The notes under the pieces: model-generated
Database searches by the model: none
What the model was told of the DNA's origin: nothing
The model's input: only the letters and a program-made list of their open reading frames with translations
Made by a program: the position numbers and the translations under genes
Assembly: GCA_025812035.1 (NCBI GenBank)
Contig: GCA_025812035.1_4719.1
Reading direction: 5' to 3' (one strand)
Length of the DNA stretch: 64,000 nt
Source: a phage
Part shown: in pieces, positions 2,368 through 53,227 of the stretch
Layout of the letters: every line of letters starts with the position of its first letter
Numbering within the stretch: the stretch's first letter is position 1

Positions 2368-2399
2368 CCCTCCTCCAACCCGTAAGGGAAGGAGGAGGG
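2368..2399. terminator. GC-rich stem-loop (9-bp CCCTCCTCC/GGAGGAGGG stem, inner CCC-GTAA-GGG) between convergent genes; copy 1 of a 3-copy repeat
   Basis: perfect inverted repeat read directly; sits between the plus-strand gene ending at 2351 and the minus-strand gene ending at 2417; only a weak T-rich tail, so terminator role is inferred. Confidence 0.45.
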
Positions 2400-3391: not shown

Positions 3392-6004
3392 TTATGCGTC
3401 CGGCGTAAAATCAAAAGGAACGTCCGTACGAATGATATCATAGCGTTTTCCTAAGAAATAGAACTCCTCGGGGACCTGACCGGGAACAATACTATCGCCG
3501 ATGAACTGCGGATATGCCCAGATGTACTGAGTGAGTCCTTCGAACATATCCAGGTTATTTGCGTGGTTACCCATGATACGTTTCCAAAGTTCGCGTTTAT
3601 ACGGTGTTTTAACATCGAACCCATAAAGCGGTGCAAGATCCACACCAGGCACAAATCCCAGGTAGTAGTGGATCTGACTGACCGGGAAACCAAGCGTATC
3701 TCGCGGAATGGTGATCGCTTGCTCAGCCTTGGTGACATGCGTCTCAATAATCCAGTCGTAGCACTCCGAATAGAACCGATCGAATTTCTCTGGATTATAC
3801 CACGCTTTGGGAAGATTCAATTTCTCCGTAAAATCGTTCGACATGATCGTCGGCAAGAAAGGAAGTATGCCCGTCTTTATTTGCGTGTATTTTGATTTTA
3901 CGCGATTTACCAGATTCCAACAAGCATAACCGAGCTGATCGTTACAGAACTCAACGTACAGATCGTAATCCCCTCCCGATAATGGATTATTAATATCACC
4001 GATATCAGCTGCGTATTTGTTGGGGTATCGTGTATTAAATGCCAGTTTGGTTTGGTAATCGTAAATGCACGGTTTATTGTTCTTCGTGTTAATCCACCAC
4101 CATGGCTCACCTACCTGCACGCAAATGTCCTGGACATGAGGATAGATAATATCAGCAAATGCTGTTAACACATCCCCTAACCACGCCATCGCATGTTGGT
4201 TACATGGAGACAACAACCAAGACGGTGGCGTATATCCGGTTGCTGCTATGTTTCCTTCCCAATCCTGCTGCGCCCACTCGAATGGACACGCTGTACTCAT
4301 CAATTCGTAACTTAAACTGATGGTGACAGAGAAATGGTGTTTTGCGGCGTATGCAGCAAAGGCTTCATGCCATGCAATACAGGGTGGATTTAGTACATCT
4401 GTGGTGTTCACCAGTAACTTACCCGCACTTGGTGTCCAGACAGTATCGTAGAAATGCGACATTCCGACATAGTGCACTAATTCATCCTGATAACCCGCAT
4501 ACACCAGGTTTTCAAATACACGCTCTGGCGTGATGTTGTAATGGTCATCATAAGCGGTTATTGCACGAAGCTCATGCGGTGTGCAACGGTGACGATTAAC
4601 CGTCATTTCCTGGTACACCCCATCGATAGGAAGAATCTCGATGGTTAAACCAAGATCGATCGGCGTTTCCAGATAGGTCGTTTCTGTAGCACCTTCTTTA
4701 TAATGTCGAGAACTCATGCTGAACATCAACGATGTTACCGATTCAAGTTCGATGGGTTCGTCAGCATAGAACCCCGCCATCGCATCGTTGAAATCGATCG
4801 TCACGGTCGCACTCGTACCGTCTTTAGAAACGTCGGTTGCATATCGGGTTAATGAGATATACTGGCGACTATCGTCTTTGTGAACGACGGTTAAAACCGG
4901 TGGGTTTTCAGTATCAGCAAAATTACGCTGGTCGCCAGTAAACGTGATCTTCGCTTTAAAGATCAAACCGAATAACGACGTCATGGGGGCATACGCAACG
5001 CAACCATGATCCAGTGTATCCGTTGTTCGCCATTCTATCCCGACCAACCCGTTAGCGGTATGACATCGCATATACGCGTTAAGTACCATGTCTTCACTGA
5101 CAACCGCGAAGTTCTCTGTTGACTGACCGTTGATAATCCAATACATCGGTTGCCAAAGATTACGAGTACCTTTTGCATAGCGGTAGGTTGGCGCGCCTTT
5201 TGGGTTGCCGTTATTAAGATGGAATACAGCAGTACCTTGGTAGTGATCGTTCGTATTAATCGGAACGCTGTAAGCGTCACCGATATCCGTACGTTCGACC
5301 TTAGCGACTGTTGCGTTTTCAAACAGTCCACGTAGCGTAGGAAGACCAATATCTTCAGGCGCGTTTTCTCGACGAATCGCATCCGCGATGCGATGGGCTA
5401 AGGCGGGGTAAATGACTTCACCTTGTTGCAGGTTCGCAAGCCCTGCGAAACGATCGGGGTCGATGCCAGCAATCAATAACTCGACATCACCCTTCGTTCT
5501 ATCGTCGCGGAGGTATTTCAGTCCAGTAAGATCGAGATGTCGAATTAACGACAACAGATCGTACTTACGGTTTTCAACAGTCAGTTCGAGATCACCTGCC
5601 CAAACCAAACTTCCCTCATCCGCCGCTACTCTAACGGATTGTCGGCCTGTGGTAGATGTTGTTGTCGTTTTATTTAATTGCTCTTGTAGGAAGTCGGTTG
5701 CGAGGTCAAAGGCAACGCCGTAACGGTCAGCGACGGCTTGCATGATTTCACGTAACTGGGTATCTTCTTCAATGATAATCTTGACAGGTATTCCCAAGAA
5801 CGCTTTAGTGAGGTCCCGCTTAACCATCGAGACGAATACGGATTTGTAATACCGGCTTCCATCTTTCCCTTTAAAAAGAATGGAAGTTGTTTCGGGTGAC
5901 GATAGAACACGTGCAAATTCAACATCGTCGAATGTAAGAGAAAGTCCGTTTTTCTCGTTGGTTAATCTTAATATTTCATTTTGCGCGGTTTCATGTAACT
6001 TCAT
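3392..6004 (-). CDS. tail fibre/spike protein, member of shared-N-domain family
   Basis: 870 codons; N-terminal ~170 aa (NEILRLTNEKN...FDDVEF...YKSVFVSMVKRDLTKAFLGIPVKII...YGVAFDLATDFLQEQLNK) is homologous to the N-termini of ORFs at 12028-12555, 12712-14466 and 51773-53227; large unique C-terminal domain. Confidence 0.6.
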   Translation of the reverse strand: MKLHETAQNEILRLTNEKNGLSLTFDDVEFARVLSSPETTSILFKGKDGSRYYKSVFVSMVKRDLTKAFLGIPVKIIIEEDTQLREIMQAVADRYGVAFDLATDFLQEQLNKTTTTSTTGRQSVRVAADEGSLVWAGDLELTVENRKYDLLSLIRHLDLTGLKYLRDDRTKGDVELLIAGIDPDRFAGLANLQQGEVIYPALAHRIADAIRRENAPEDIGLPTLRGLFENATVAKVERTDIGDAYSVPINTNDHYQGTAVFHLNNGNPKGAPTYRYAKGTRNLWQPMYWIINGQSTENFAVVSEDMVLNAYMRCHTANGLVGIEWRTTDTLDHGCVAYAPMTSLFGLIFKAKITFTGDQRNFADTENPPVLTVVHKDDSRQYISLTRYATDVSKDGTSATVTIDFNDAMAGFYADEPIELESVTSLMFSMSSRHYKEGATETTYLETPIDLGLTIEILPIDGVYQEMTVNRHRCTPHELRAITAYDDHYNITPERVFENLVYAGYQDELVHYVGMSHFYDTVWTPSAGKLLVNTTDVLNPPCIAWHEAFAAYAAKHHFSVTISLSYELMSTACPFEWAQQDWEGNIAATGYTPPSWLLSPCNQHAMAWLGDVLTAFADIIYPHVQDICVQVGEPWWWINTKNNKPCIYDYQTKLAFNTRYPNKYAADIGDINNPLSGGDYDLYVEFCNDQLGYACWNLVNRVKSKYTQIKTGILPFLPTIMSNDFTEKLNLPKAWYNPEKFDRFYSECYDWIIETHVTKAEQAITIPRDTLGFPVSQIHYYLGFVPGVDLAPLYGFDVKTPYKRELWKRIMGNHANNLDMFEGLTQYIWAYPQFIGDSIVPGQVPEEFYFLGKRYDIIRTDVPFDFTPDA

Positions 6005-6026: not shown

Positions 6027-6668
6027 TTAGATGTACTGCTTACCGCCCACGAAGGAAGTCAGCCAGTTCCCTGAAACAAGCTGCGATACCCAACCGGGTA
6101 CCGCTCTACCATTCTGGCTCATGATGTTACCACACCAACCAGGGAATCCGGGACGGATATAATAGAAAGTTAAATTGTAGAGATGGCAATTCCACACCGC
6201 AACGTTATGTTTACCAGAAACCGCTTTAAAGACAAACGCAACGGGTAAAGGCGACGATAGCAATTCGGTCACAGGGACGGCTGACCAATTCGCATTCGCG
6301 TTCCACGGTTGCCAGGTATGGCTACGCGAGTCGCAAAATACGTTACCGTTGTTACCGCGCCCACCCGCATTCCACCACAGCGACGGACTCATGTTCTTAA
6401 GTGAGGTAAATTGCTGCGGTGGAATATTAGGAATAATAACAGGGTTGGTACCTTGCCCATGTTTCTTTTCTTTTGCGTTCACATACCCGCTTATCGATTC
6501 GAGGTATTTGACACCAGGATAATTGTTCTGGACTTGTGTCGCAATATCACGAACATCAAACGTCCAGCAGATCATGGTGTTGTAGTAAGCATCGGTGTTG
6601 TCGTACCATGCGTTACCATCTTGTAAACGTGCGCCACTATTCGGTGTTTTATCTGTGTTTATAGCCAT
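6027..6668 (-). CDS. hypothetical protein, paralog sharing C-terminal domain with 6780-7496
   Basis: 213 codons; C-terminal RPGFPGWCGNIMSQNGRAVPGWVSQLVSGNWLTSFVGGKQY is near-identical to the C-terminus of the next gene. Confidence 0.5.
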   Translation of the reverse strand: MAINTDKTPNSGARLQDGNAWYDNTDAYYNTMICWTFDVRDIATQVQNNYPGVKYLESISGYVNAKEKKHGQGTNPVIIPNIPPQQFTSLKNMSPSLWWNAGGRGNNGNVFCDSRSHTWQPWNANANWSAVPVTELLSSPLPVAFVFKAVSGKHNVAVWNCHLYNLTFYYIRPGFPGWCGNIMSQNGRAVPGWVSQLVSGNWLTSFVGGKQYI

Positions 6669-6769: not shown

Positions 6770-6794
6770 CTAACTTCAATTAAATTGAAGTTAG
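6770..6794. repeat. perfect 12-bp inverted repeat with 1-nt spacer (CTAACTTCAATT-A-AATTGAAGTTAG) centred on the stop codon of gene 6780-7496
   Basis: read directly from sequence; AT-rich palindrome straddling a gene end. Confidence 0.4.
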
Positions 6795-7496
6795 ATATTG
6801 TTTACCTCCAACAAACGACGTTAACCAATTACCTGAAACAAGTTGCGATGCCCAGCCAGGCACTGCCCTACCGTTCTGGCTCATCACGTTACCTGCCCAT
6901 CCCGGAAAACCCGGCCGGAAAATATATACTTGAATATGTGTTAAAGCGTTATCATTACCACCGCCAACAGCAACGTTACGACTCCCAGATGACGGGAAAT
7001 ATTCTTTTAAGAACAGAGGATCGGTTGCTAATAAAGATGCGGGCCAAGGGTTCGCGGATGCATCAACATCGAATTCGGTCCATCGCCATTTACGTCCCGT
7101 GTCGAACCATGTCGATGTACCGCCTCCACGCACTGCAAGATTGCGTGCGTCGCGGGCATTGTAAATTGATTCGATGTTACGCCACCCACCTTTTGCGGCG
7201 TTTGCCGCATAGCAAATCGCATTACCACCATTCTTCTTTTCGTAAACAGTTCGTTTGATATGAACACGATCGATGAACGCTTCACCGTATTTGTTGACGA
7301 GCGTTTGTGCGATATCACGAAGATCGTGCATGTGAAAAGCGATGTCTTCGTTATGGAACCATGTTGTCGGGTTCCAGACGGTACCGTTTGGTTCGGCACA
7401 CATCGATCGGATATTGTTGCGTTGATTAACCGCGATAAAACCCATTGTATACCTCGTTCCTATTCTCAAAAAGGAAATTTCATACGATGACGCCAT
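6780..7496 (-). CDS. hypothetical protein, paralog sharing C-terminal domain with 6027-6668
   Basis: start revised to ATG at 7496 (MASSYEISF...), 5 nt downstream of the GGAGGAG arm of the hairpin at 7501-7530; the ORF-track start at 7532 lies inside that hairpin. Confidence 0.5.
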   Translation of the reverse strand: MASSYEISFLRIGTRYTMGFIAVNQRNNIRSMCAEPNGTVWNPTTWFHNEDIAFHMHDLRDIAQTLVNKYGEAFIDRVHIKRTVYEKKNGGNAICYAANAAKGGWRNIESIYNARDARNLAVRGGGTSTWFDTGRKWRWTEFDVDASANPWPASLLATDPLFLKEYFPSSGSRNVAVGGGNDNALTHIQVYIFRPGFPGWAGNVMSQNGRAVPGWASQLVSGNWLTSFVGGKQYLTSI

Positions 7497-7500
7497 AGCA

Positions 7501-7530
7501 GCTCCTCCTTCCCTTACGGGTTGGAGGAGC
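7501..7530 (-). promoter_or_regulatory. GC-rich stem-loop, repeat copy 2; its 3' arm GGAGGAG lies 5 nt upstream of the ATG at 7496
   Basis: 28-nt core identical to the 2368 and 41224 copies; in the transcript the hairpin 3' arm overlaps the Shine-Dalgarno position. Confidence 0.45.
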
Positions 7531-7538
7531 ATACTTAA

Positions 7539-8086: not shown

Positions 8087-8503
8087 TTACATAGCAGCAG
8101 GAAATTCCGGCCAATCGATATTTGGTGCAGCATCGGTATCGACAGCCGTCACGGCATCGATGTAATCCAAAACAGCATTAAGTTGAGTCGTTTCTTCCGG
8201 AGTCAGTTTTCGCCCAGCCCGTAATTTTAACTGAATAAGATCGATGGAAGCCAGCGCTGAATCAATCTTTGATTGTTTTATCTGTTCTGCCTCGGCGACG
8301 AGATCTTCGTGCTGCCGCTCGGGTTCAGGAGGCGCGATAAACTCGCCATCCGAGTATAACCAACCTATTCCAGGTGACACAGTTACCGCATCGCTAATAC
8401 TAACCAACTGTTGATTGTCGGATATATTGAGCTCTGCCTCACCATCGTAAACGATCGTGTTTACTACTACCCCATTTTCAATAACAGCGTATGATGTACT
8501 CAT
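8087..8503 (-). CDS. tail fibre assembly chaperone (Tfa-like)
   Basis: start revised to ATG at 8503, overlapping the fibre gene stop (TAATG); C-terminal AVLDYIDAVTAVDTDAAPNIDWPEFP resembles the conserved tail of Tfa chaperones; lies immediately downstream of the fibre gene. Confidence 0.6.
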   Translation of the reverse strand: MSTSYAVIENGVVVNTIVYDGEAELNISDNQQLVSISDAVTVSPGIGWLYSDGEFIAPPEPERQHEDLVAEAEQIKQSKIDSALASIDLIQLKLRAGRKLTPEETTQLNAVLDYIDAVTAVDTDAAPNIDWPEFPAAM

Positions 8504-11500
8504 TACATAAACTCCTCGATGATGCAAATCCCATTAGCACCACGCCCACCAGGCTTAGCGCTTCCTGAGAAAGAGTTGTCGTAAGCACCACCACCACCCG
8601 AACCAGGCGCGAGGCCGTTGTGGGCGGTGCCAACACCGGCGCGACCGCCACCGCCCCAATATGACGCACCCCCACACCCACCGACAGTAATAGTACCGGC
8701 TTGTCCGTCGCCACCGTCTCCGCCCGGAATGCGTATATCCCCGGTATTAGGTACGCCCCCATAGCCACCACCAGTGTTTGTGATAGTTGTTTTTCCTGCG
8801 CCTTGCCCGCCGGGAGCGGTTAGCAGGGATGCAAATTTACTATCCCCACCCCCGTTTCCAGATGTTGCTCCAGAGCCGCCGGAACCACCAGAACCAATTA
8901 CAACAGAATAACTAGTAGCTGATATCGTTATAACCGAAATTACTGTTCCACCGGCCCCACCGCCAGCACCAAAAAACGTTTCACCGTTGGAAAAAGCCTG
9001 GCAACCACCGCCACCGCCTCCACCACCGGTTATTGTTACTCTAATCCGTTTTGTTCCTTGTGTTGGGGTGTACGTCCCTGACGATGTGAAAACACGCATG
9101 TTCAGTAAACGTCCGACATATCCGCTAGAATCGGCTAAACCAAGATCTTTAGCTGCTAACGTGATATTAGCTGTACCGTCAAACGGTTTACCGTTAATCG
9201 TGCGCGCAGTCTGCAACTTCGTCGCCGTTGCTGCGTTTCCTGATGTATTCTGGTTTCCCGCGGCGTTAACACCCGGCAGATTGATGTTCGCACTACCGTC
9301 GAAAGACACCCCACCAATGGTGCGAGCTGTTTTCAGTTTTGTCGCCGTGGCAGCATTACCGGTCGTGTCTTGGTTACCGGTGGTGTTTACCCCAGGCAGG
9401 TTGATATTTGCCGTTCCGTTAAATGAAACACCACCAATCGTCCTTGCCGTTTGCAACTTCGTTGCGGATGCCGCATTCCCCGTGGTGTTTTGGTTACCCG
9501 TTGCATTCACGCCCGGGATACTATCCTTAGATGTGTAGATCTGTGCCCATTCCGACCAGTTCGAATCGGTTGCATCACGACGTGAACGTAGGTAAGCTGG
9601 AGCGTGTGCGCCCGCGGTACCTGACCACCCAATAAAGATCTCGCCTTCACCGACCGATGAAGCGCCTTTAAGATGAATGACGTTACCATAAGCGGTAGGA
9701 TATCCGTTATTGTACGCTTCATACATCTGGATGCCCGCATTGCTGCCCTGAGCTGTGTTAGCTAAAGCCGTAACACGACCTTTGGAGGCGAGAGCGGTAA
9801 TACTGAAGCTAATGTCCTTAGTACCGTCAAAGGCGACCCCATTAATCTTCCGTGCTGTTTGGAGTTTCGTGGCAGTAGCCGCATTACCAGAGGTACTCTG
9901 ATTACCTGCTTTGTTCACGCCTGGTAAATCAATGTTGGCTGTTCCATCAAAGGACACGCCCCCTATGGTTCTCGCCGTCTGAAGTTTTGTTGCTGAGCCA
10001 GCGTTTCCGGAAGTGCTTTGATTACCTGCCGCGTTGACACCCGGTAGGTTAATGCTAGCAGAACCATCAAAAGAAACTCCACCTATCGTGATCGGTGTTT
10101 TCAATTTCGTGGCTGTCGCGGCGTTACCCGTCGTATTCTGATTACCGGCTGCATTGACGCCAGGTAATGCGATATCGGCCGTACCGTCGAACGCGACACC
10201 ACCGATTTTACGGGCGGTTTGTAGCTTGGTCGCTGTAGCCGCGTTACCGCTGGTATTTTGCGTGCCCGCTTTATTTACACCGGGAAGATCGATGTTGGCA
10301 GAACCATCGAATCTGACGCCACCTATCGTTCTTGCAGTAGCAAGTTTAGCTGCTGTGGCTGCATTATTGCCCACTTTTAGCCAATCATCCCATGGACCAT
10401 CCTGGCCGTTCCACGACGCCGTTAAACCACGTACGTAAATATTGCCTGTACGTACAGTGTACCGTTGCATCCCACCGAATTGTCCGGCTGGGAGTACTTC
10501 AAGGTAACCTGCGGCATTTGCTTCAGGGAAATTGTGGGCGGCGTCCGCGTTCGTCGCTATTGGTTTAGACCAAATACCCACAGACGCTTCAACCGGACCG
10601 TAGGTATTCAGATTTGCGTCAGCAGGGAGTGGTCCTCGGAAACGCAGTAATTGTATTGGCGTTAACCCCAACGTTCTTTGCATTCCCTCGACACTCGATT
10701 GCGATAAAAGTGCCCGAGCTGTCGACGTGATGGTCGCTAAAGCAACCTTGTCGACTCCAGTGAAATAAGGGAATTTGTTCGCTGATGTCGCTAAACCTGA
10801 AAAGGCGGTCAGTAATGCATTAAGGGGTTGCTTCCCAGCTAACGCTTTCGTTACTGTCGTTGAGAAATTAGGATCACTTCCTATAGCTCGAGCCAGCTTA
10901 TTAAGCGTATTTAGCGCATCTGGAGACGAGTCAATCAACGACGTGATCGCACGCATCACAAATTCCGTGTTGGCAATCTGTCGACTGCTATTGTTAATTG
11001 CTGCGGTGGGTGTTGTTGGAGTACCGGTGAATACAGGACTATTAAGATCCGCCTTGAGAGCAATGAGGCGTTTAAGTGCTTCGACATCGACTTTCAGGTT
11101 TTCCCACCCGATGAGAGAACCGTCTCCGTTGGTATGATAACGGTTATACCAGAAGTCGCCGTTAACACCCCAAAAGAATATACCTTTCTCTTCGTTTTGC
11201 GGGCCGGAACTATTTCGCGATGAGCCGATATATTTGATTTCAATAAGACCCTCAAACACGACTCCCGGGATTATTTTGTTGTCTCCAGCTGACTGTACTA
11301 CTTGATAAACTCCAGGCGTTGCTGCTCTAACCCATGTTAAGAATTCCGTTATTCCAGCGGTGCCACTGAAACGCTTAACGTCGGTAAGTATCGCCCCATA
11401 ACCGAACATACCCGGTAACGCAACTCGTCCGCCGGTACGGTCACGAATATTTGAGGCAACGACGGGCAGCTTTTTACGAACGCTGTTAACCGCCTTAGGT

Positions 11501-12021
11501 GTGGCTGCTTTTGTCTCGTCATCGCTATCGATGGCGTTGCTCAGGATGGTCAGTCCTCGCTTATCTATGGTTGCGTCGGGAAGAAACGCGTTATCCAACA
11601 CTTTAAGCTGTACAGCGCTCGTGTTACTAACAACGAGATACATCTGGCAGTTAAGAACGCTGCTTGCGCCTTCAGTAGGAACAGGCTTGTATCTTTCCGG
11701 TGCGCTGCAGACAGCGACCAGAACACCTCGATCGTCATACAAGCCGATTTCGCGTACCCAGAATCCACCTTGGTTTACAGGAATAATACCCTCAACAATA
11801 ATCCTGGTTGTGTCGTCTGCGTCAACGCGGATGTTAGAAACTTCCCCGCGATAAACTTCGTGTACAAGGGCTGTTTGACTAGCATCGGGAGTTGGTGTAG
11901 AGCCGTTACCGTCACCAACGGCAAAATGTGTAATTTTTAGTTTCTCGCCGTCCGGAAGTAGTGCGGCGGCGATACGTTCAGTACCTTTATCGGTAATGAC
12001 CGTTCTATATGTTGTACTCAT
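8503..12021 (-). CDS. long tail fibre protein (P2 gpH-like N-terminus, fibre repeats, Gly-rich tip)
   Basis: 1172 codons; N-terminus MSTTYRTVITDKGTERIAAALLPDGEKLKITHFAVGDGNG...ALVHEVYR matches the P2 H/lambda-type fibre N-domain; two arrays of a ~40-aa repeat (GNAATATKLQTARTIGGVSFDG.ANI.LPGVN); Gly-rich C-terminal region. Confidence 0.85.
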   Translation of the reverse strand: MSTTYRTVITDKGTERIAAALLPDGEKLKITHFAVGDGNGSTPTPDASQTALVHEVYRGEVSNIRVDADDTTRIIVEGIIPVNQGGFWVREIGLYDDRGVLVAVCSAPERYKPVPTEGASSVLNCQMYLVVSNTSAVQLKVLDNAFLPDATIDKRGLTILSNAIDSDDETKAATPKAVNSVRKKLPVVASNIRDRTGGRVALPGMFGYGAILTDVKRFSGTAGITEFLTWVRAATPGVYQVVQSAGDNKIIPGVVFEGLIEIKYIGSSRNSSGPQNEEKGIFFWGVNGDFWYNRYHTNGDGSLIGWENLKVDVEALKRLIALKADLNSPVFTGTPTTPTAAINNSSRQIANTEFVMRAITSLIDSSPDALNTLNKLARAIGSDPNFSTTVTKALAGKQPLNALLTAFSGLATSANKFPYFTGVDKVALATITSTARALLSQSSVEGMQRTLGLTPIQLLRFRGPLPADANLNTYGPVEASVGIWSKPIATNADAAHNFPEANAAGYLEVLPAGQFGGMQRYTVRTGNIYVRGLTASWNGQDGPWDDWLKVGNNAATAAKLATARTIGGVRFDGSANIDLPGVNKAGTQNTSGNAATATKLQTARKIGGVAFDGTADIALPGVNAAGNQNTTGNAATATKLKTPITIGGVSFDGSASINLPGVNAAGNQSTSGNAGSATKLQTARTIGGVSFDGTANIDLPGVNKAGNQSTSGNAATATKLQTARKINGVAFDGTKDISFSITALASKGRVTALANTAQGSNAGIQMYEAYNNGYPTAYGNVIHLKGASSVGEGEIFIGWSGTAGAHAPAYLRSRRDATDSNWSEWAQIYTSKDSIPGVNATGNQNTTGNAASATKLQTARTIGGVSFNGTANINLPGVNTTGNQDTTGNAATATKLKTARTIGGVSFDGSANINLPGVNAAGNQNTSGNAATATKLQTARTINGKPFDGTANITLAAKDLGLADSSGYVGRLLNMRVFTSSGTYTPTQGTKRIRVTITGGGGGGGGCQAFSNGETFFGAGGGAGGTVISVITISATSYSVVIGSGGSGGSGATSGNGGGDSKFASLLTAPGGQGAGKTTITNTGGGYGGVPNTGDIRIPGGDGGDGQAGTITVGGCGGASYWGGGGRAGVGTAHNGLAPGSGGGGAYDNSFSGSAKPGGRGANGICIIEEFM
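9157..9516 (-). repeat. in-frame tandem repeat array (3 units, ~120 bp each) inside the tail fibre gene
   Basis: protein residues ~836-955 repeat the motif PGVN..GNQ.T.GNAA.ATKL.TARTIGGVSF.G.ANI. Confidence 0.7.
9787..10371 (-). repeat. in-frame tandem repeat array (~5 units, ~120 bp each) inside the tail fibre gene
   Basis: protein residues ~551-745 carry the same ~40-aa fibre repeat. Confidence 0.7.
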
Positions 12022-12027
12022 GGCGTT

Positions 12028-12555
12028 TTATCCCGGGTAAATAGTGATGGTGTCACCAACGAGGGTTGTGGCACCAGAGTAAAGATACGCTGGTGATGCT
12101 TCACGTTGGTTAGTCACGGTAAGATTCATTTGCCCACGCCAAACCATGGAGGTATTCGCGATGGGAATCAAGATCTTCTTGGAAGTATCGTCACGAAAAT
12201 TAATGGTGGTAGCAAGGGTAGCTGAATCAAAATCAACGTCAGGTTCAAAGATGAACCCGTATTGATCTGAAATAGCTTGAATGACCGCTCTTATAGTTGT
12301 TGTTTCAACCGACTCCAAAACGATTTTTATCGGTATTCCTAGAAACGCTTTCGCGATATCACGTCGTGTGTAAGTAATAAAACTCTCACCACACCACCTT
12401 GTTCCTTCATTTGCTGTGACGATCACTTTTGCCCTGTTAGCACCAGAACTCCCATCCAGGGTTAAAGTGAGATCGGAGTTACTGAATACGCTACTGTTAC
12501 GTTGGTTTATCAACGCAATCAGTTCGTCCTTCCACGGCGGGTAAAGTGAACGCAT
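12028..12555 (-). CDS. fibre-family N-terminal domain protein (short paralog)
   Basis: start revised to ATG at 12555, preceded by GGAGGAGGG; 175 aa aligning only to the shared N-domain of the fibre paralogs (WKDELIALINQRN...YTRRDIAKAFLGIPIKIV...YGFIFEPDVDF). Confidence 0.5.
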   Translation of the reverse strand: MRSLYPPWKDELIALINQRNSSVFSNSDLTLTLDGSSGANRAKVIVTANEGTRWCGESFITYTRRDIAKAFLGIPIKIVLESVETTTIRAVIQAISDQYGFIFEPDVDFDSATLATTINFRDDTSKKILIPIANTSMVWRGQMNLTVTNQREASPAYLYSGATTLVGDTITIYPG

Positions 12556-12669
12556 AAGCGCACCCTCCTCCAACAATCAATTAAAATGCAAAACACCTCG
12601 AAACCAGAGTGCGATTCGAAGCAAGCGTAAACGGCCTGAACGACCGCATAAAATTCCGCGCATATTACC

Positions 12670-12699
12670 CCCTCTACCCCGACAAAGCGAGGTAGAGGG
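12670..12699 (-). promoter_or_regulatory. intergenic stem-loop (CCCTCTACC/GGTAGAGGG, 9 bp), followed in the transcript by AATATGCGCG
   Basis: perfect inverted repeat between gene 12712-14466 and gene 12028-12555. Confidence 0.4.
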
Positions 12700-12711
12700 A
12701 GAATAATACGA

Positions 12712-14466
12712 TTATGCTGCTACGTATCCAGGCCAACGTTCTCTTGGCCAGTTTGTTGCACCCTGTCCGACGGTGTCTTTACCAGAAATGACGTTACTTA
12801 CATCCCATCCACTCAGATCCTGATTGAATGCGGTGTTCTCGCGCATCATGAGATCGATCTTACGTAGTGAGTGGGTATTCCAACCAGATATGTCTTGGTT
12901 GAATGCTTTATTGTAGGCAAACATGTTAGACACGTTCTGTAATTTTGACGTGTTCCAACCACTGATGTCGCTATTGAACGACGTGCTTGAGAACATGCTG
13001 CTCGCATCAACAAGATTGTCGGTTTTCCAATTAACCACTTTATCGCCGTCAAATGCATTGCTGCTGCTGAACATAAAACTCATATTGCTAGCTTTGGACA
13101 CATCCCATTTATCTAACCCTTTACCGACGAACTCATTACATGCCGAGAACATCCAGCTCATATCGGTAACCCGACTCACGTTCCATTTGCTGAAGTCAAG
13201 GTTAAGTTTCTGACACCCTAAGAAGGTCTTATACATGTTGGTGATGCGACTAACATCCCACTCTTGGATGTTAGGGTCGTTAAGCGTCGTTAAGTAGTTG
13301 AACAATGTCGCTAACGACGTCCATTTCTCTGGAATCCGGTTTGGTACCGTACGAAGCGATGCAAGGTTGTTGGTTGACGGAGAGCAGAACATACCGTTAT
13401 CCCAATTTACGATTTCCGTAATTTTGGACCCTTTGATCGTCTGAGTGGTATTACCATCTTTCACTATACCCGTAGCAACGATGGTATATTCACCGGTGCC
13501 TGCATAATCGTGGGCGTAGGCACCGTTACTTGAGGTCTCCGTTACTTTATTCCCATCACCCCAATCGATATTAACTTTATCCCACCCACTTAGGTTGAAC
13601 TGTACTTTGCCTCCGGTAGCTTTTAGGATGTATTTACCTCCATTGTCGGTAAAATAGCAGACAACCATTGAACCGTACAGATTACCTATCCGCCAATCAT
13701 CCTTTTCTGTCACTGCGATTTGCGCTAAGCCACGCTGTACGAAGAGTACTGTGCGGTTCTCGTCAGTCTGTAATGTGGCTAATGCTTGGGCCTTATCGTC
13801 CTCGCTAATTTCATTAGCGCTCACTAAAACGCTTAACATTCTTTCGAAGTATTCGATGGGTAATTGACGTCCTACAGACTTATCAACCGACGGTTCAGCA
13901 AGATCGCCCAACGCTGCAGTGGTGGCCAGCATCAACGAACCCTTGGTCATATCTGTTTCTTGTAGGTAGTGCAGTCCTGTAATCTGGTACGCTTGAATAA
14001 TCGTAATCAGGTTCAGCGTATCGTTAACGACCTGTACTTGTAAATGTCCAGACCATACGTAGCTGCTTTCGGCAATTGGTAGTTCGACCGACTGGATACC
14101 TGATGTTTCAAAGGTGATCTTCTTGTTAAGATCGGTTTCCAGGAAATCAACAGCGAGGTCAAAATTTATACCGTACTTCTCAGCGATAGAATCCACGATG
14201 TTTCTGAAAGCAACGTCATTATTTACGATGAAACGTAATGGGATTCCTGCAAACGCTCTAGCAATGTCTCGACGAACATACGTGAGCGACTGCTCGAAGA
14301 AATAGGGGCTACCATCTCGCGGTTTAATGGTCACCTGACATACTTCGGGATATTCAGCTGGGATTAACGACACGAATTCAACATCGGATTCTTTCAATGA
14401 AAGCATATTCTTCCGGTTTACTAATGCCAGAAGATCGGCTTTCCAACCAGGATAAACTGTAGACAT
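12712..14466 (-). CDS. tail fibre-like protein with PKD-like segment and DUF285-type repeats
   Basis: start revised to ATG at 14466 (GGAGTG upstream; MSTVYPGWKADLLALVN aligns with paralog N-termini); IDWGDGNKVT...YAHDYAGTGEYTI is PKD-like; C-terminal repeats of type FNQDISGWNTS..M..MF are DUF285/BspA-like. Confidence 0.6.
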   Translation of the reverse strand: MSTVYPGWKADLLALVNRKNMLSLKESDVEFVSLIPAEYPEVCQVTIKPRDGSPYFFEQSLTYVRRDIARAFAGIPLRFIVNNDVAFRNIVDSIAEKYGINFDLAVDFLETDLNKKITFETSGIQSVELPIAESSYVWSGHLQVQVVNDTLNLITIIQAYQITGLHYLQETDMTKGSLMLATTAALGDLAEPSVDKSVGRQLPIEYFERMLSVLVSANEISEDDKAQALATLQTDENRTVLFVQRGLAQIAVTEKDDWRIGNLYGSMVVCYFTDNGGKYILKATGGKVQFNLSGWDKVNIDWGDGNKVTETSSNGAYAHDYAGTGEYTIVATGIVKDGNTTQTIKGSKITEIVNWDNGMFCSPSTNNLASLRTVPNRIPEKWTSLATLFNYLTTLNDPNIQEWDVSRITNMYKTFLGCQKLNLDFSKWNVSRVTDMSWMFSACNEFVGKGLDKWDVSKASNMSFMFSSSNAFDGDKVVNWKTDNLVDASSMFSSTSFNSDISGWNTSKLQNVSNMFAYNKAFNQDISGWNTHSLRKIDLMMRENTAFNQDLSGWDVSNVISGKDTVGQGATNWPRERWPGYVAA

Positions 14467-41223: not shown

Positions 41224-41255
41224 CCCTCCTCCTTCCCTTACGGGTTGGAGGAGGG
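41224..41255. repeat. GC-rich stem-loop, repeat copy 3 (32/32 identical to the reverse complement of copy 1)
   Basis: CCCTCCTCCTTCCCTTACGGGTTGGAGGAGGG on the plus strand; intergenic between two minus-strand genes. Confidence 0.5.
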
Positions 41256-51671: not shown

Positions 51672-51772
51672 TTAAGAAGCTCTGCCTGATGTCAGGCAGA
51701 GCTTTATGCTGCGTTTACTGCAAAATCGTATGACGTATATACGTCGTAATGATTAAAAATAGGGCAGAACAC

Positions 51773-53227
51773 ATGAAACTCAAACAAAGCTGGAAAAACG
51801 AACTCCTTGCATTAGTAAACAGCAAAAACAGTTTACAACTGACATTAGACGACGTAAAATTTGAACTAACCGAACCGGTAAGCGAAGTGCCTGGAACGGT
51901 CGTTGTTACGATCAAACCGAACGATAATAGTCGCTACTTTAACGAGCAGTCTCTGACCTACGTCCGTCGAGACATTGCTAAAAACTTCACCGGGATTCCG
52001 TTACGGGTTATCGTTAAAAAAGATACCGCCGTAAGGGATATCATCAGTACGATTGCTAAACGTTACGGACTGGTATTTGATACCACTGTCGACTTCCTCG
52101 AATCAGAACTGAATAAGCAAATTACTTTCGCAGACACCGGTATTAAAGACGTTACGGTTCCGGTTGCCAATACGTCTTATGTTTGGGCCGGTAATCTTCA
52201 GTTCAATATCGCTAACGATACGTTAAGCTTGATTACTATCATCAAGAAAACCGATCTTACGAATCTGGTTTATCTGGATGGTGTTGAAGCTGACACATCG
52301 GGGTCGTTACTGTTAGCAACCGCAGCACTTGTTAACGAACACGTAAATGAACCGATGGTTGAAAACGAAGATATCGTTAATGAATTCATTAACGTTCTTA
52401 ATGCTCTAGCCAAATATGGTGACATAACCGGCGATGAATTAGATGCCGCCTTACAAGCGTACGATGAAGCAGAAAACAGGAATAAAACCACGGTAATAAC
52501 TCTTGGTGATATCGAGTGCGTTGCAACCGAAAAAGACGATTGGGAAATTGGACATTTACGCGGTCGGATGGTTCTCGCGCTCAAATCCGATAAACAACCG
52601 GAGCTCGATAACACGTTCAGGTTGTTTACGAATGGTGGTGATGTATCGCTAACGTTAAACACAATGAAAGATATAAGTATCGATTGGGGTGATGGGAATA
52701 AAGTAACGTTGGATGCCGAAGAAAGATACGCGCACCACACATATGCCGACAATAACCAATACCAAATCGAAATTGTGTCTCGTACGGACCCAGATGTGCT
52801 GCGACCAAATTATATTTCTGGGAGTGAGATAACCGAAGTAATTCACTGGGCTACTACTTCAACAATAGCTCTGAATTTTGTTGGATGCGATAATTTAGCG
52901 ACTGTTCCAGATGAGATCCCAACTTCGTGGACAACGTTGGACAGCATGTTTGAAAGTTGTACGAATTTGAATGATCCGTCTATCTCTAACTGGAATACAA
53001 GTAACATCACATCAATGAATGGTATGTTCGGCGGATGCACTAAATTTAACCAACCTTTAGCTGCCTGGGATGTCAGCTCGGTAACTGACATTGGTGGTAT
53101 GTTTGTCGGGTGTAGCAGTTTTAACCAAGATTTAAGTGGATGGCGATTACCGTCTGGAGTAAACCACCGCGATTACGATAGTGGTGCTTTCTCGTGGCAG
53201 ACGGAACATAAACCGACGTTCAAGTAA
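51773..53227 (+). CDS. tail fibre-like protein (shared N-domain, PKD-like segment, DUF285-type repeats)
   Basis: start revised to ATG at 51773 (MKLKQSWKNELLALVN aligns with paralog N-termini); IDWGDGNKVT...YAHHTY; C-terminal ...FNQPLAAWDVSSVTDIGGMF...FNQDLSGW. Confidence 0.55.
   Translation: MKLKQSWKNELLALVNSKNSLQLTLDDVKFELTEPVSEVPGTVVVTIKPNDNSRYFNEQSLTYVRRDIAKNFTGIPLRVIVKKDTAVRDIISTIAKRYGLVFDTTVDFLESELNKQITFADTGIKDVTVPVANTSYVWAGNLQFNIANDTLSLITIIKKTDLTNLVYLDGVEADTSGSLLLATAALVNEHVNEPMVENEDIVNEFINVLNALAKYGDITGDELDAALQAYDEAENRNKTTVITLGDIECVATEKDDWEIGHLRGRMVLALKSDKQPELDNTFRLFTNGGDVSLTLNTMKDISIDWGDGNKVTLDAEERYAHHTYADNNQYQIEIVSRTDPDVLRPNYISGSEITEVIHWATTSTIALNFVGCDNLATVPDEIPTSWTTLDSMFESCTNLNDPSISNWNTSNITSMNGMFGGCTKFNQPLAAWDVSSVTDIGGMFVGCSSFNQDLSGWRLPSGVNHRDYDSGAFSWQTEHKPTFK

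Follow-up and report, generated by a model that had tools for sequence, protein, structure and literature searches.

We identified a candidate chimeric adaptor gene directly upstream of the long tail fibre gene in a 64,000-nucleotide stretch of phage DNA (GenBank assembly GCA_025812035.1, contig GCA_025812035.1_4719.1; the whole stretch is referred to as the window). The open reading frame (ORF) encodes 175 aa at positions 12028..12555 on the minus strand and is orthologous to gp091 of Escherichia phage Goslar (YP_009820776). We have little doubt that the gene is a chimera, in which a DUF7941 domain is followed by the C-terminal tether of the P2 baseplate protein gpI. It is probable, though considerably less certain and judged here from sequence, that the product works as a structural adaptor for the long fibre. 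The region is approximately 84% identical to Goslar, a nucleus-forming jumbo phage, and the window derives from a Goslar-like chimallivirus. The adaptor and gp091 are both 175 aa long and align without indels at 86% nucleotide and 83% amino acid identity, and gp091 likewise lies upstream of the fibre gene gp090 and the tail fibre assembly (Tfa) gene gp089. The membership of gp091 in the DUF7941 family has already been published. In the literature searched, however, no description of the chimeric architecture or of a link between adaptor and fibre was found; the Goslar preprint (Basu et al., bioRxiv 2026) draws no connection between gp91 and gp90, and apart from it we found no further paper on DUF7941 in phages.

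The adaptor tail and the gpI C-terminus

The final 24 residues of the adaptor (residues 152–175, EASPAYLYSGATTLVGDTITIYPG; 12031..12102, minus strand) are homologous to the C-terminus of P2 gpI, a baseplate protein that ends …DIPGYLFAGGVAYDGDVITVYPG. The homology was detected by BLASTP, hhalign, hidden Markov model (HMM) and tblastn comparisons, and the segment is absent from the paralogues in the window. In P2-like phages gene I is found directly upstream of gene H, and the adaptor was therefore compared with gpI of phage Wphi. This hypothesis-driven BLASTP comparison gave an E value of 3e-5, with the alignment reaching the last residue of both proteins and both ending ...ITxYPG-stop (adaptor ...TNQREASPAYLYSGATTLVGDTITIYPG-stop, gpI ...ITRD-IPGYLFAGGVAYDNDIITVYPG-stop). 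A profile of the adaptor orthologues aligned with a gpI profile in hhalign at a probability of 92.5% and an E value of 4.7e-7. Nearly all of 89 full-length gpI homologues end ...GD[IT]ITVYPG, and a few end GDIITIYPG, which is identical to the Goslar-type adaptor orthologues. Compared with some P2-like gpI tails, the adaptor tail is identical at 15 of 23 positions.

An HMM of the gpI tail was run against 905 sequences, including 146 DUF7941 representatives and all ORFs of the window. The gp091 orthologues were matched at E values of 2e-8 to 4e-5, and the next best sequence at 0.66. A scoring matrix for the C-terminal 12-mer assigned 26 bits to the adaptor, compared with a maximum of 6.5 among 51,722 12-mers of the window. 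An unbiased tblastn search of 50,697 phage genomes (2.3 Gb) with the last 31 aa of the adaptor matched 62 records, two of which are Goslar (one place each) and 60 P2-like; in every P2-like match listed, the hit falls on the 3' end of a gene annotated as I. We also scanned IMG/VR with a DNA pattern for GDxITIYPG-stop and obtained 24 loci, consisting of 21 canonical gpI genes and three Goslar-like examples. Each motif is located 6–11 nt upstream of a gpH-type fibre or, in one fibre-deleted contig, upstream of Tfa.

The alignments with gpI are confined to adaptor residues ~127–175. The region corresponding to the gpI triplex core is unmatched, residues 1–151 being DUF7941, and a self-built HMM of full-length gpI gives the adaptor just 11 bits. 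A check of the individual residues confirmed that R151 of the adaptor aligns with R153 of P2 gpI, the arginine that immediately precedes DIPGY in ...NITRDIPGY....

A 2026 P2 cryo-EM preprint describes the C-terminal segment of gpI as a flexible tether that holds the gpH fibre. P2 gpI is flexible from R153 onward, AF2-multimer places this region between two gpH chains, and the contact is modelled as beta-sheet pairing with the trimeric N-terminal adaptor domain of gpH (2026 P2 preprint). Receptor-binding proteins attach to the wedge protein of the BW3/gpI class in T4 (gp7), A511 (gp104) and P2 (gpI), and in XM1 the attachment is at the gpI-class protein's C-terminal region. Later papers describe attachment of the receptor-binding protein to the pyocin member of this class, PA0619.

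The proposed partner of the tether in the window is the P2 gpH-type N-terminal adaptor domain of the long fibre (residues 1–141; 11599..12021, minus strand; PF12571, E 2e-44), which is 43% identical to Peduovirus gpH N-termini. The fibre itself (1172 aa; 8503..12021, minus strand) is orthologous to Goslar gp090 and consists of this domain, fibre repeats and a glycine-rich C-terminal domain, with matches to Pfam Phage_tail_fib, Phage_fiber_2 and Gly_rich_2 and to PHROG tail-fibre families. A gene for a tail fibre assembly protein of the P2 gpG / lambda Tfa type follows (8087..8503, minus strand; PF02413 Caudo_TAP, E 1e-20) and completes the P2-like order of I-tail, H and G. The adaptor protein has no match to Caudo_TAP, Tfa being a separate gene.

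The DUF7941 docking domain

Residues 1–151 of the adaptor (12103..12555, minus strand) constitute the DUF7941 N-terminal domain (Pfam PF25613), a docking module common to three receptor-binding paralogues in the window. The adaptor matches PF25613 with 64.1 bits (cut-off 27; E 1.8e-17) over profile positions 7–155 of 276 only, and it also matches phrog_1037 and phrog_2935. Identity between its N-domain and those of the three paralogues is 28–32%, and all four proteins match DUF7941. A 584-aa paralogue (12712..14466, minus strand) carries the N-domain and DUF285, with a canonical linker motif after the N-domain that the adaptor does not have. The second, identified by its domain matches, is an 870-aa orthologue of Goslar gp086 with a complete DUF7941, NCTSP_N and a TIM barrel (3392..6004, minus strand). 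Domain comparison assigns the N-domain and DUF285 to the third, of 492 aa (51749..53227, plus strand).

The linker and C-terminal domain that form the 'arm' of DUF7941 proteins (profile positions 156–276) have no counterpart in the adaptor, and the canonical linker motif of the close long paralogues is present in none of 30 adaptor orthologues. Our HMM for this linker is too narrow to be applied family-wide, matching only two out of 50 short DUF7941 members and 20 out of 62 long ones, and the contrast is claimed solely between the close paralogues, in which the motif is present, and the orthologues, in which it is absent.

An AF2 monomer model of the adaptor, made with an 18-sequence alignment (mean pLDDT 69), has residues 1–152 folded (pLDDT ~70–85) and residues 154–175 disordered. 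The sole significant Foldseek match of the model in the PDB is 9xqd chain 0 (E 7e-6, probability 1.00; TM only 0.36–0.41), a 150-residue chain of the phiKZ outer baseplate that corresponds to the N-terminal domain of gp127. In phiKZ the gp139 spoke bears this domain as a cap, at the periphery of the baseplate (phiKZ atlas, Nat Commun 2026). Goslar gp91 is one of ten DUF7941 proteins predicted to interact mutually, and these proteins are proposed to assemble head-to-tail into filaments with their anchor at the peripheral baseplate, each subunit using its linker and C-terminal domain to grip the N-terminal domain of the following one (Basu et al., bioRxiv 2026). In the same preprint the N-terminal domain of gp127 gives way to the linker at residue 150, and the swap point of the adaptor, at residue ~151, coincides with this boundary. 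Because of this coincidence, the absence of the linker motif and the gpI-like tail, we infer that a gpI tether has taken the place of the arm in a DUF7941 subunit.

Gene signals and the junction with the fibre gene

The adaptor ORF starts with the ATG at 12555 and ends with the TAA at 12030–12028. A Shine-Dalgarno sequence, GGAGGAGGG, is located 7 nt 5' of the ATG (12563..12571, minus strand) and is also kept in Goslar. Five copies of GGAGGAGGG are found in the window compared with 0.15 expected. The four copies other than the Shine-Dalgarno sequence itself occur as two inverted, hairpin-like pairs with members 23 nt apart (window 2368–2399 and 41224–41255).

A 6-nt spacer, AACGCC (12022..12027, minus strand), separates the adaptor stop codon from the ATG of the fibre gene (12021). 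The corresponding I-H junctions of P2-like phages are 10–11 nt. On the other side of the adaptor gene, between it and the stop codon of the 584-aa gene, there is a hairpin, CCCTCTACC-N10-GGGGTAGAGGG (window 12670–12699, minus strand), that is also found in Goslar. It has no following T-run and hence was not called by the terminator scan. For the adaptor gene, a chimallivirus late gene, the scan for sigma-70 promoters and terminators was uninformative.

The gene had been noted in an earlier reading of the window from its letters alone (the sequence-only reading). The ORF coordinates and surroundings given there agree with ours, as do the polypurine Shine-Dalgarno sequence and the P2 gpH-type N-terminus that it assigned to the fibre. 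It also described the protein as consisting of nothing more than the N-domain. This holds for residues 1 to ~151, which are common to the paralogues, but residues 152–175 are a separate, conserved gpI-like module.

Conservation among relatives

Approximately 30 full-length adaptor orthologues were identified, all of which are 173–176 aa in length, with identities from 99% down to 42%. Comparison of the adaptor with Goslar gp091 gives a dN/dS of ~0.2, and the gene is under purifying selection. The tail ...GDxITIYPG is kept in all Goslar-like orthologues. A search for related loci in IMG/VR yielded two. Matches obtained by tblastn in jumbo phages of Erwinia, Serratia and Salmonella (25–31%) were rejected as orthologues; they are longer DUF7941 paralogues in other contexts.

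The adaptor and the N-terminus of the fibre diverge together, while the flanking genes in the same relatives (the L003 lineage, Goslar and L011; related loci are given L numbers) remain 86–98% identical. Identity to the window for the adaptor and for fibre residues 1–180, respectively, is 66% and 73% in the L003 lineage, 83% and 84% in Goslar, and 89% and 79% in L011. The adaptor-fibre pair also persists in L003–L005 and in L009 despite a swap of the distal part of the fibre. The fibres of L003 (10537–14343) and L009 (5963–9760) have the same N-terminal ~550 residues, a Peptidase_S74 end and no Tfa gene. Those of the window and Goslar have Gly_rich_2 together with a separate Tfa, in place of the intramolecular chaperone Peptidase_S74, which amounts to a swap of the distal module.

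The most distant orthologue, P0052, occurs in a Logan data set (L013 92–913, ERR10140725). It is 173 aa in length, 42% identical to the adaptor and ends ...QRFAILPG, and a diverged gpH-type N-terminus follows after 68 nt. Its tail and the N-terminus of its fibre thus both differ from the Goslar type.

Natural chimeras (P0031 and P0033) were observed in L009 (5426–5956), L002 (2024–2554) and L037, a 182-kb IMG/VR contig. Their ~70 N-terminal residues come from the upstream 584-aa DUF7941+DUF285 paralogue and are joined at a conserved motif, YVRRDIAKAFLGIP, to a rest of the gp091 type. The DUF285 receptor-binding gene was lost when the two tandem paralogues recombined. In the L009 chimera the C-terminal half of the adaptor is kept, together with a fibre N-terminus that is 99% identical.

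A Goslar-like lineage without the long fibre is represented in three independent data sets by L010 (3702–4653), L002 (2024–2978) and L037, the counterpart in the window being 8087–12027. The deletion of the fibre ORF runs exactly between copies of a 9-nt repeat, ATGAGTACA, with which both the fibre (MSTTY) and Tfa (MSTSY) start. In L010 the start codon of Tfa is mutated to ACG.

Proposed function

The presence of a chimera at the position of gene I supports a role as adaptor and also offers a mechanism. The DUF7941 domain would plug the complex into the outer baseplate, or into the DUF7941 filament network by way of the arm of another subunit. The tail would grip the fibre whose gene starts 6 nt downstream, at its trimeric gpH-type N-terminus, as modelled in P2, with an expected ratio of one adaptor per fibre trimer. 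In such an arrangement the fibre would correspond, in non-covalent form, to the receptor-binding domains that the paralogues carry as fusions. The arrangement likely originated when a P2-like cassette (the 3' end of I, then H, then G) was captured by recombination at the DUF7941 domain boundary. An adaptor was one of the two possibilities raised by the sequence-only reading, and it gains from the match of the C-terminal 24 residues to the tether that holds gpH, although the function would still be one deduced from homology.

More tentatively, the 24-residue gpI peptide may be a portable socket that is sufficient by itself, which was acquired along with the fibre and took over the place of the DUF7941 arm through a graft at the domain boundary, so that the fibres hang from the DUF7941 network and not from the baseplate wedge. 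We regard this extension as possible but doubtful. Under it, foreign fibres might hang from the ends of long DUF7941 filaments.

Several observations weigh against the adaptor function. The most serious is the abundance of gp091. Label-free mass spectrometry of Goslar virions gave ~43 copies of the gp090 fibre (range 29–68) and only ~1.2 copies of gp091, the latter from 2 peptides at 17% coverage; gp092, gp093 and gp086 are present at ~4.9, ~4.8 and ~4.5 copies per virion (Basu et al. Table S4). A P2-like 1:3 ratio predicts ~14 copies of gp091, which leaves a ~12-fold shortfall. Label-free estimates are rough for small, rare proteins, and the Goslar preparation also held non-virion assemblies. 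However, the adaptor sequence contains at least eight tryptic peptides of good size, so the shortfall is not easily put down to low detectability alone, and it counts as genuine evidence that gp091 acts transiently or in sub-stoichiometric amounts. The sequence-only reading had named virion proteomics as a check; in the Goslar data the two gp091 peptides come from purified virions, in the preparation with the non-virion assemblies.

Further points lie on the same side. The Pfam model Tail_P2_I (PF09684) has no match at E values up to 10 in 18 sequences, because the shared terminal segment is too short for that model. The tail of P0052, ...FAILPG, is not scored by the gpI-tail HMM, and the adaptor monomer was modelled with moderate confidence (pLDDT 69). 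In addition, the fibre-less lineage retains an intact adaptor gene in three data sets (L010, L002 and IMG/VR L037). This last observation is weak evidence because the fibre-specific Tfa is also kept.

Alternative explanations

The low copy number would suit a transient assembly factor, whose gpI-like tail stabilises or delivers the fibre and which is mostly not retained, the fibre itself attaching by another route. T4 gp63, for example, promotes fibre attachment but is not known to be a component of the virion, and the homology to the gpI tail fits such a factor equally well. However, the DUF7941 N-domain is a structural module that occurs in the baseplate of phiKZ and in Goslar proteins abundant in the virion. 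The downstream Caudo_TAP gene already supplies a dedicated fibre chaperone, and neither the window nor Goslar yielded another socket for the gpH-type N-terminus. On balance we consider a transient factor unlikely. Somewhat further from the evidence is the idea that gp091 is an ordinary minor subunit or chain end of the Goslar DUF7941 filaments without any link to the fibre, its position reflecting a hot-spot for receptor-binding genes. It is after all listed among the ten proteins predicted to interact mutually, and about one in three DUF7941 family representatives (50 of 146) is a stand-alone protein of 140–200 aa. Such a subunit would leave three features unexplained: the match of the tail to the gpI tether up to the last residue, the absence of the canonical linker, and the pairing with a gpH-type N-terminus, which is maintained through fibre swaps and in the orthologue of 42% identity. 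We therefore think this quite improbable.

The other possibility raised by the sequence-only reading was a truncated gene, here what is left, in decay, of a full-length DUF7941 receptor-binding gene after insertion of the fibre cassette had truncated it. The likely origin of the adaptor does involve replacement of the 3' part of a DUF7941 gene, and the low abundance of gp091 would be in keeping with decay. But the constant length in ~30 variants, the dN/dS and the conserved tail largely refute a pseudogene, and the strong, conserved Shine-Dalgarno sequence and the peptides detected also speak against it. The comparison with related phages that had been suggested to reveal a full-length gene here found no longer gene at this position in the related genomes compared. 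A remnant is thus very improbable, and we attach just as little weight to stop-codon read-through, by which the DUF7941 domain would become fused to some of the fibre subunits. The adaptor and fibre ORFs are in the same frame (TAA AAC GCC ATG, window 12019–12030), and the in-frame junction TAA AAC RCC ATG is kept in the window, Goslar, L011 and L009. However, the gap in L003, of the L003–L005 lineage, is 8 nt and out of frame, and in-frame spacing is expected by chance in one case out of three. The in-frame junction is probably coincidental. A TAA stop with A as the next base is not known to be leaky in E. coli, and the conserved ...YPG-stop ending has its mirror image in gpI, a protein made separately from the fibre.

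Implications of a probable structural adaptor

Exchange of receptor-binding genes is common among phages, but a foreign fibre is useless to the recipient phage unless it can be attached to its tail. How such attachment is achieved across unrelated baseplates is rarely visible in sequence, and here it is readable directly: the fibre would have come with the final 24 residues of its socket protein, joined to the universal docking domain of the recipient. If the structural adaptor described above is correct, it would provide a function for one of the ten Goslar DUF7941 proteins and, in nucleus-forming jumbo phages, link the peripheral baseplate with the long fibres. Phage engineers would also gain a minimal tag with which P2-type fibres could be mounted on other scaffolds. 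The portable socket, if real, would represent a general plug-and-tether route by which fibres are adopted between phages with unrelated baseplates.

Neighbouring genes

A second arrangement of small and large proteins is found in Goslar (L001 15001–19441), where gp093, a 276-aa protein consisting of DUF7941 alone, is encoded directly upstream of the 1198-aa tail protein gp092. The virion copy numbers of these two proteins are almost equal. Both genes are absent from the window, where, upstream of the adaptor, the 584-aa DUF285 fusion is found in their place, and L003 has all three.

Two adjacent genes on the minus strand of the window encode proteins of 250 aa (6780–7532) and 213 aa (6027–6668) whose C-terminal ~60 residues are near-identical (…RPGFPGW.GN.MSQNGRAVPGW.SQLVSGNWLTSFVGGKQY). 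Neither protein has a match in Pfam or PHROG. Goslar has the 213-aa gene alone, and L003 has both.

Comparison with known systems

P2 gpI (BW3 / Tail_P2_I; R2-pyocin PA0619, PDB 6u5b) shares with the adaptor the same terminal 23–24 residues, ending GDxITxYPG-stop, and the location of its gene, immediately upstream of the one for a gpH-type fibre, which is in turn followed by a Tfa gene. The proteins are nearly the same length (175 aa for the adaptor, 176 aa for gpI), and the proposed mode of holding the fibre is the same. However, adaptor residues 1–151 have no similarity to gpI, the part that forms the (gpJ)2-gpI wedge triplex being replaced by DUF7941. The anchor point of the adaptor in the virion must therefore differ from that of gpI. 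The adaptor is also unlike T4 gp8 and A511 gp105, which connect BW3 to the tail fibre network. Those proteins bind the BW3 chain, whereas the adaptor carries a copy of the tether; they have a different fold, and no homology between them and the adaptor was detected.

The N-terminal domain of the adaptor is the one found in the Goslar DUF7941 proteins gp22, gp23, gp86, gp92 and gp161 and in phiKZ gp127 and gp126. By analogy with these relatives, the adaptor probably uses the same docking site, either on the outer baseplate or on the arm of another subunit. It differs from them in that the arm or fused receptor-binding domain has been replaced by a foreign fibre tether, so that the fibre, as its receptor-binding part, would be held by non-covalent attachment.

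A stand-alone docking protein has a parallel in podoviruses. Leiman and colleagues are said to have described in 2007 that the gp37 proteins of K1-5 and SP6 are stand-alone, trimeric adaptors related to the N-terminus of T7 gp17. As in that system, the docking domain of the chimeric adaptor is a separate small protein that would allow interchangeable receptor-binding proteins to be carried on a conserved site. The two are unrelated in sequence, and what distinguishes the adaptor described here is that it would bind its cargo through a short peptide, which likely came in along with the gene for that cargo.

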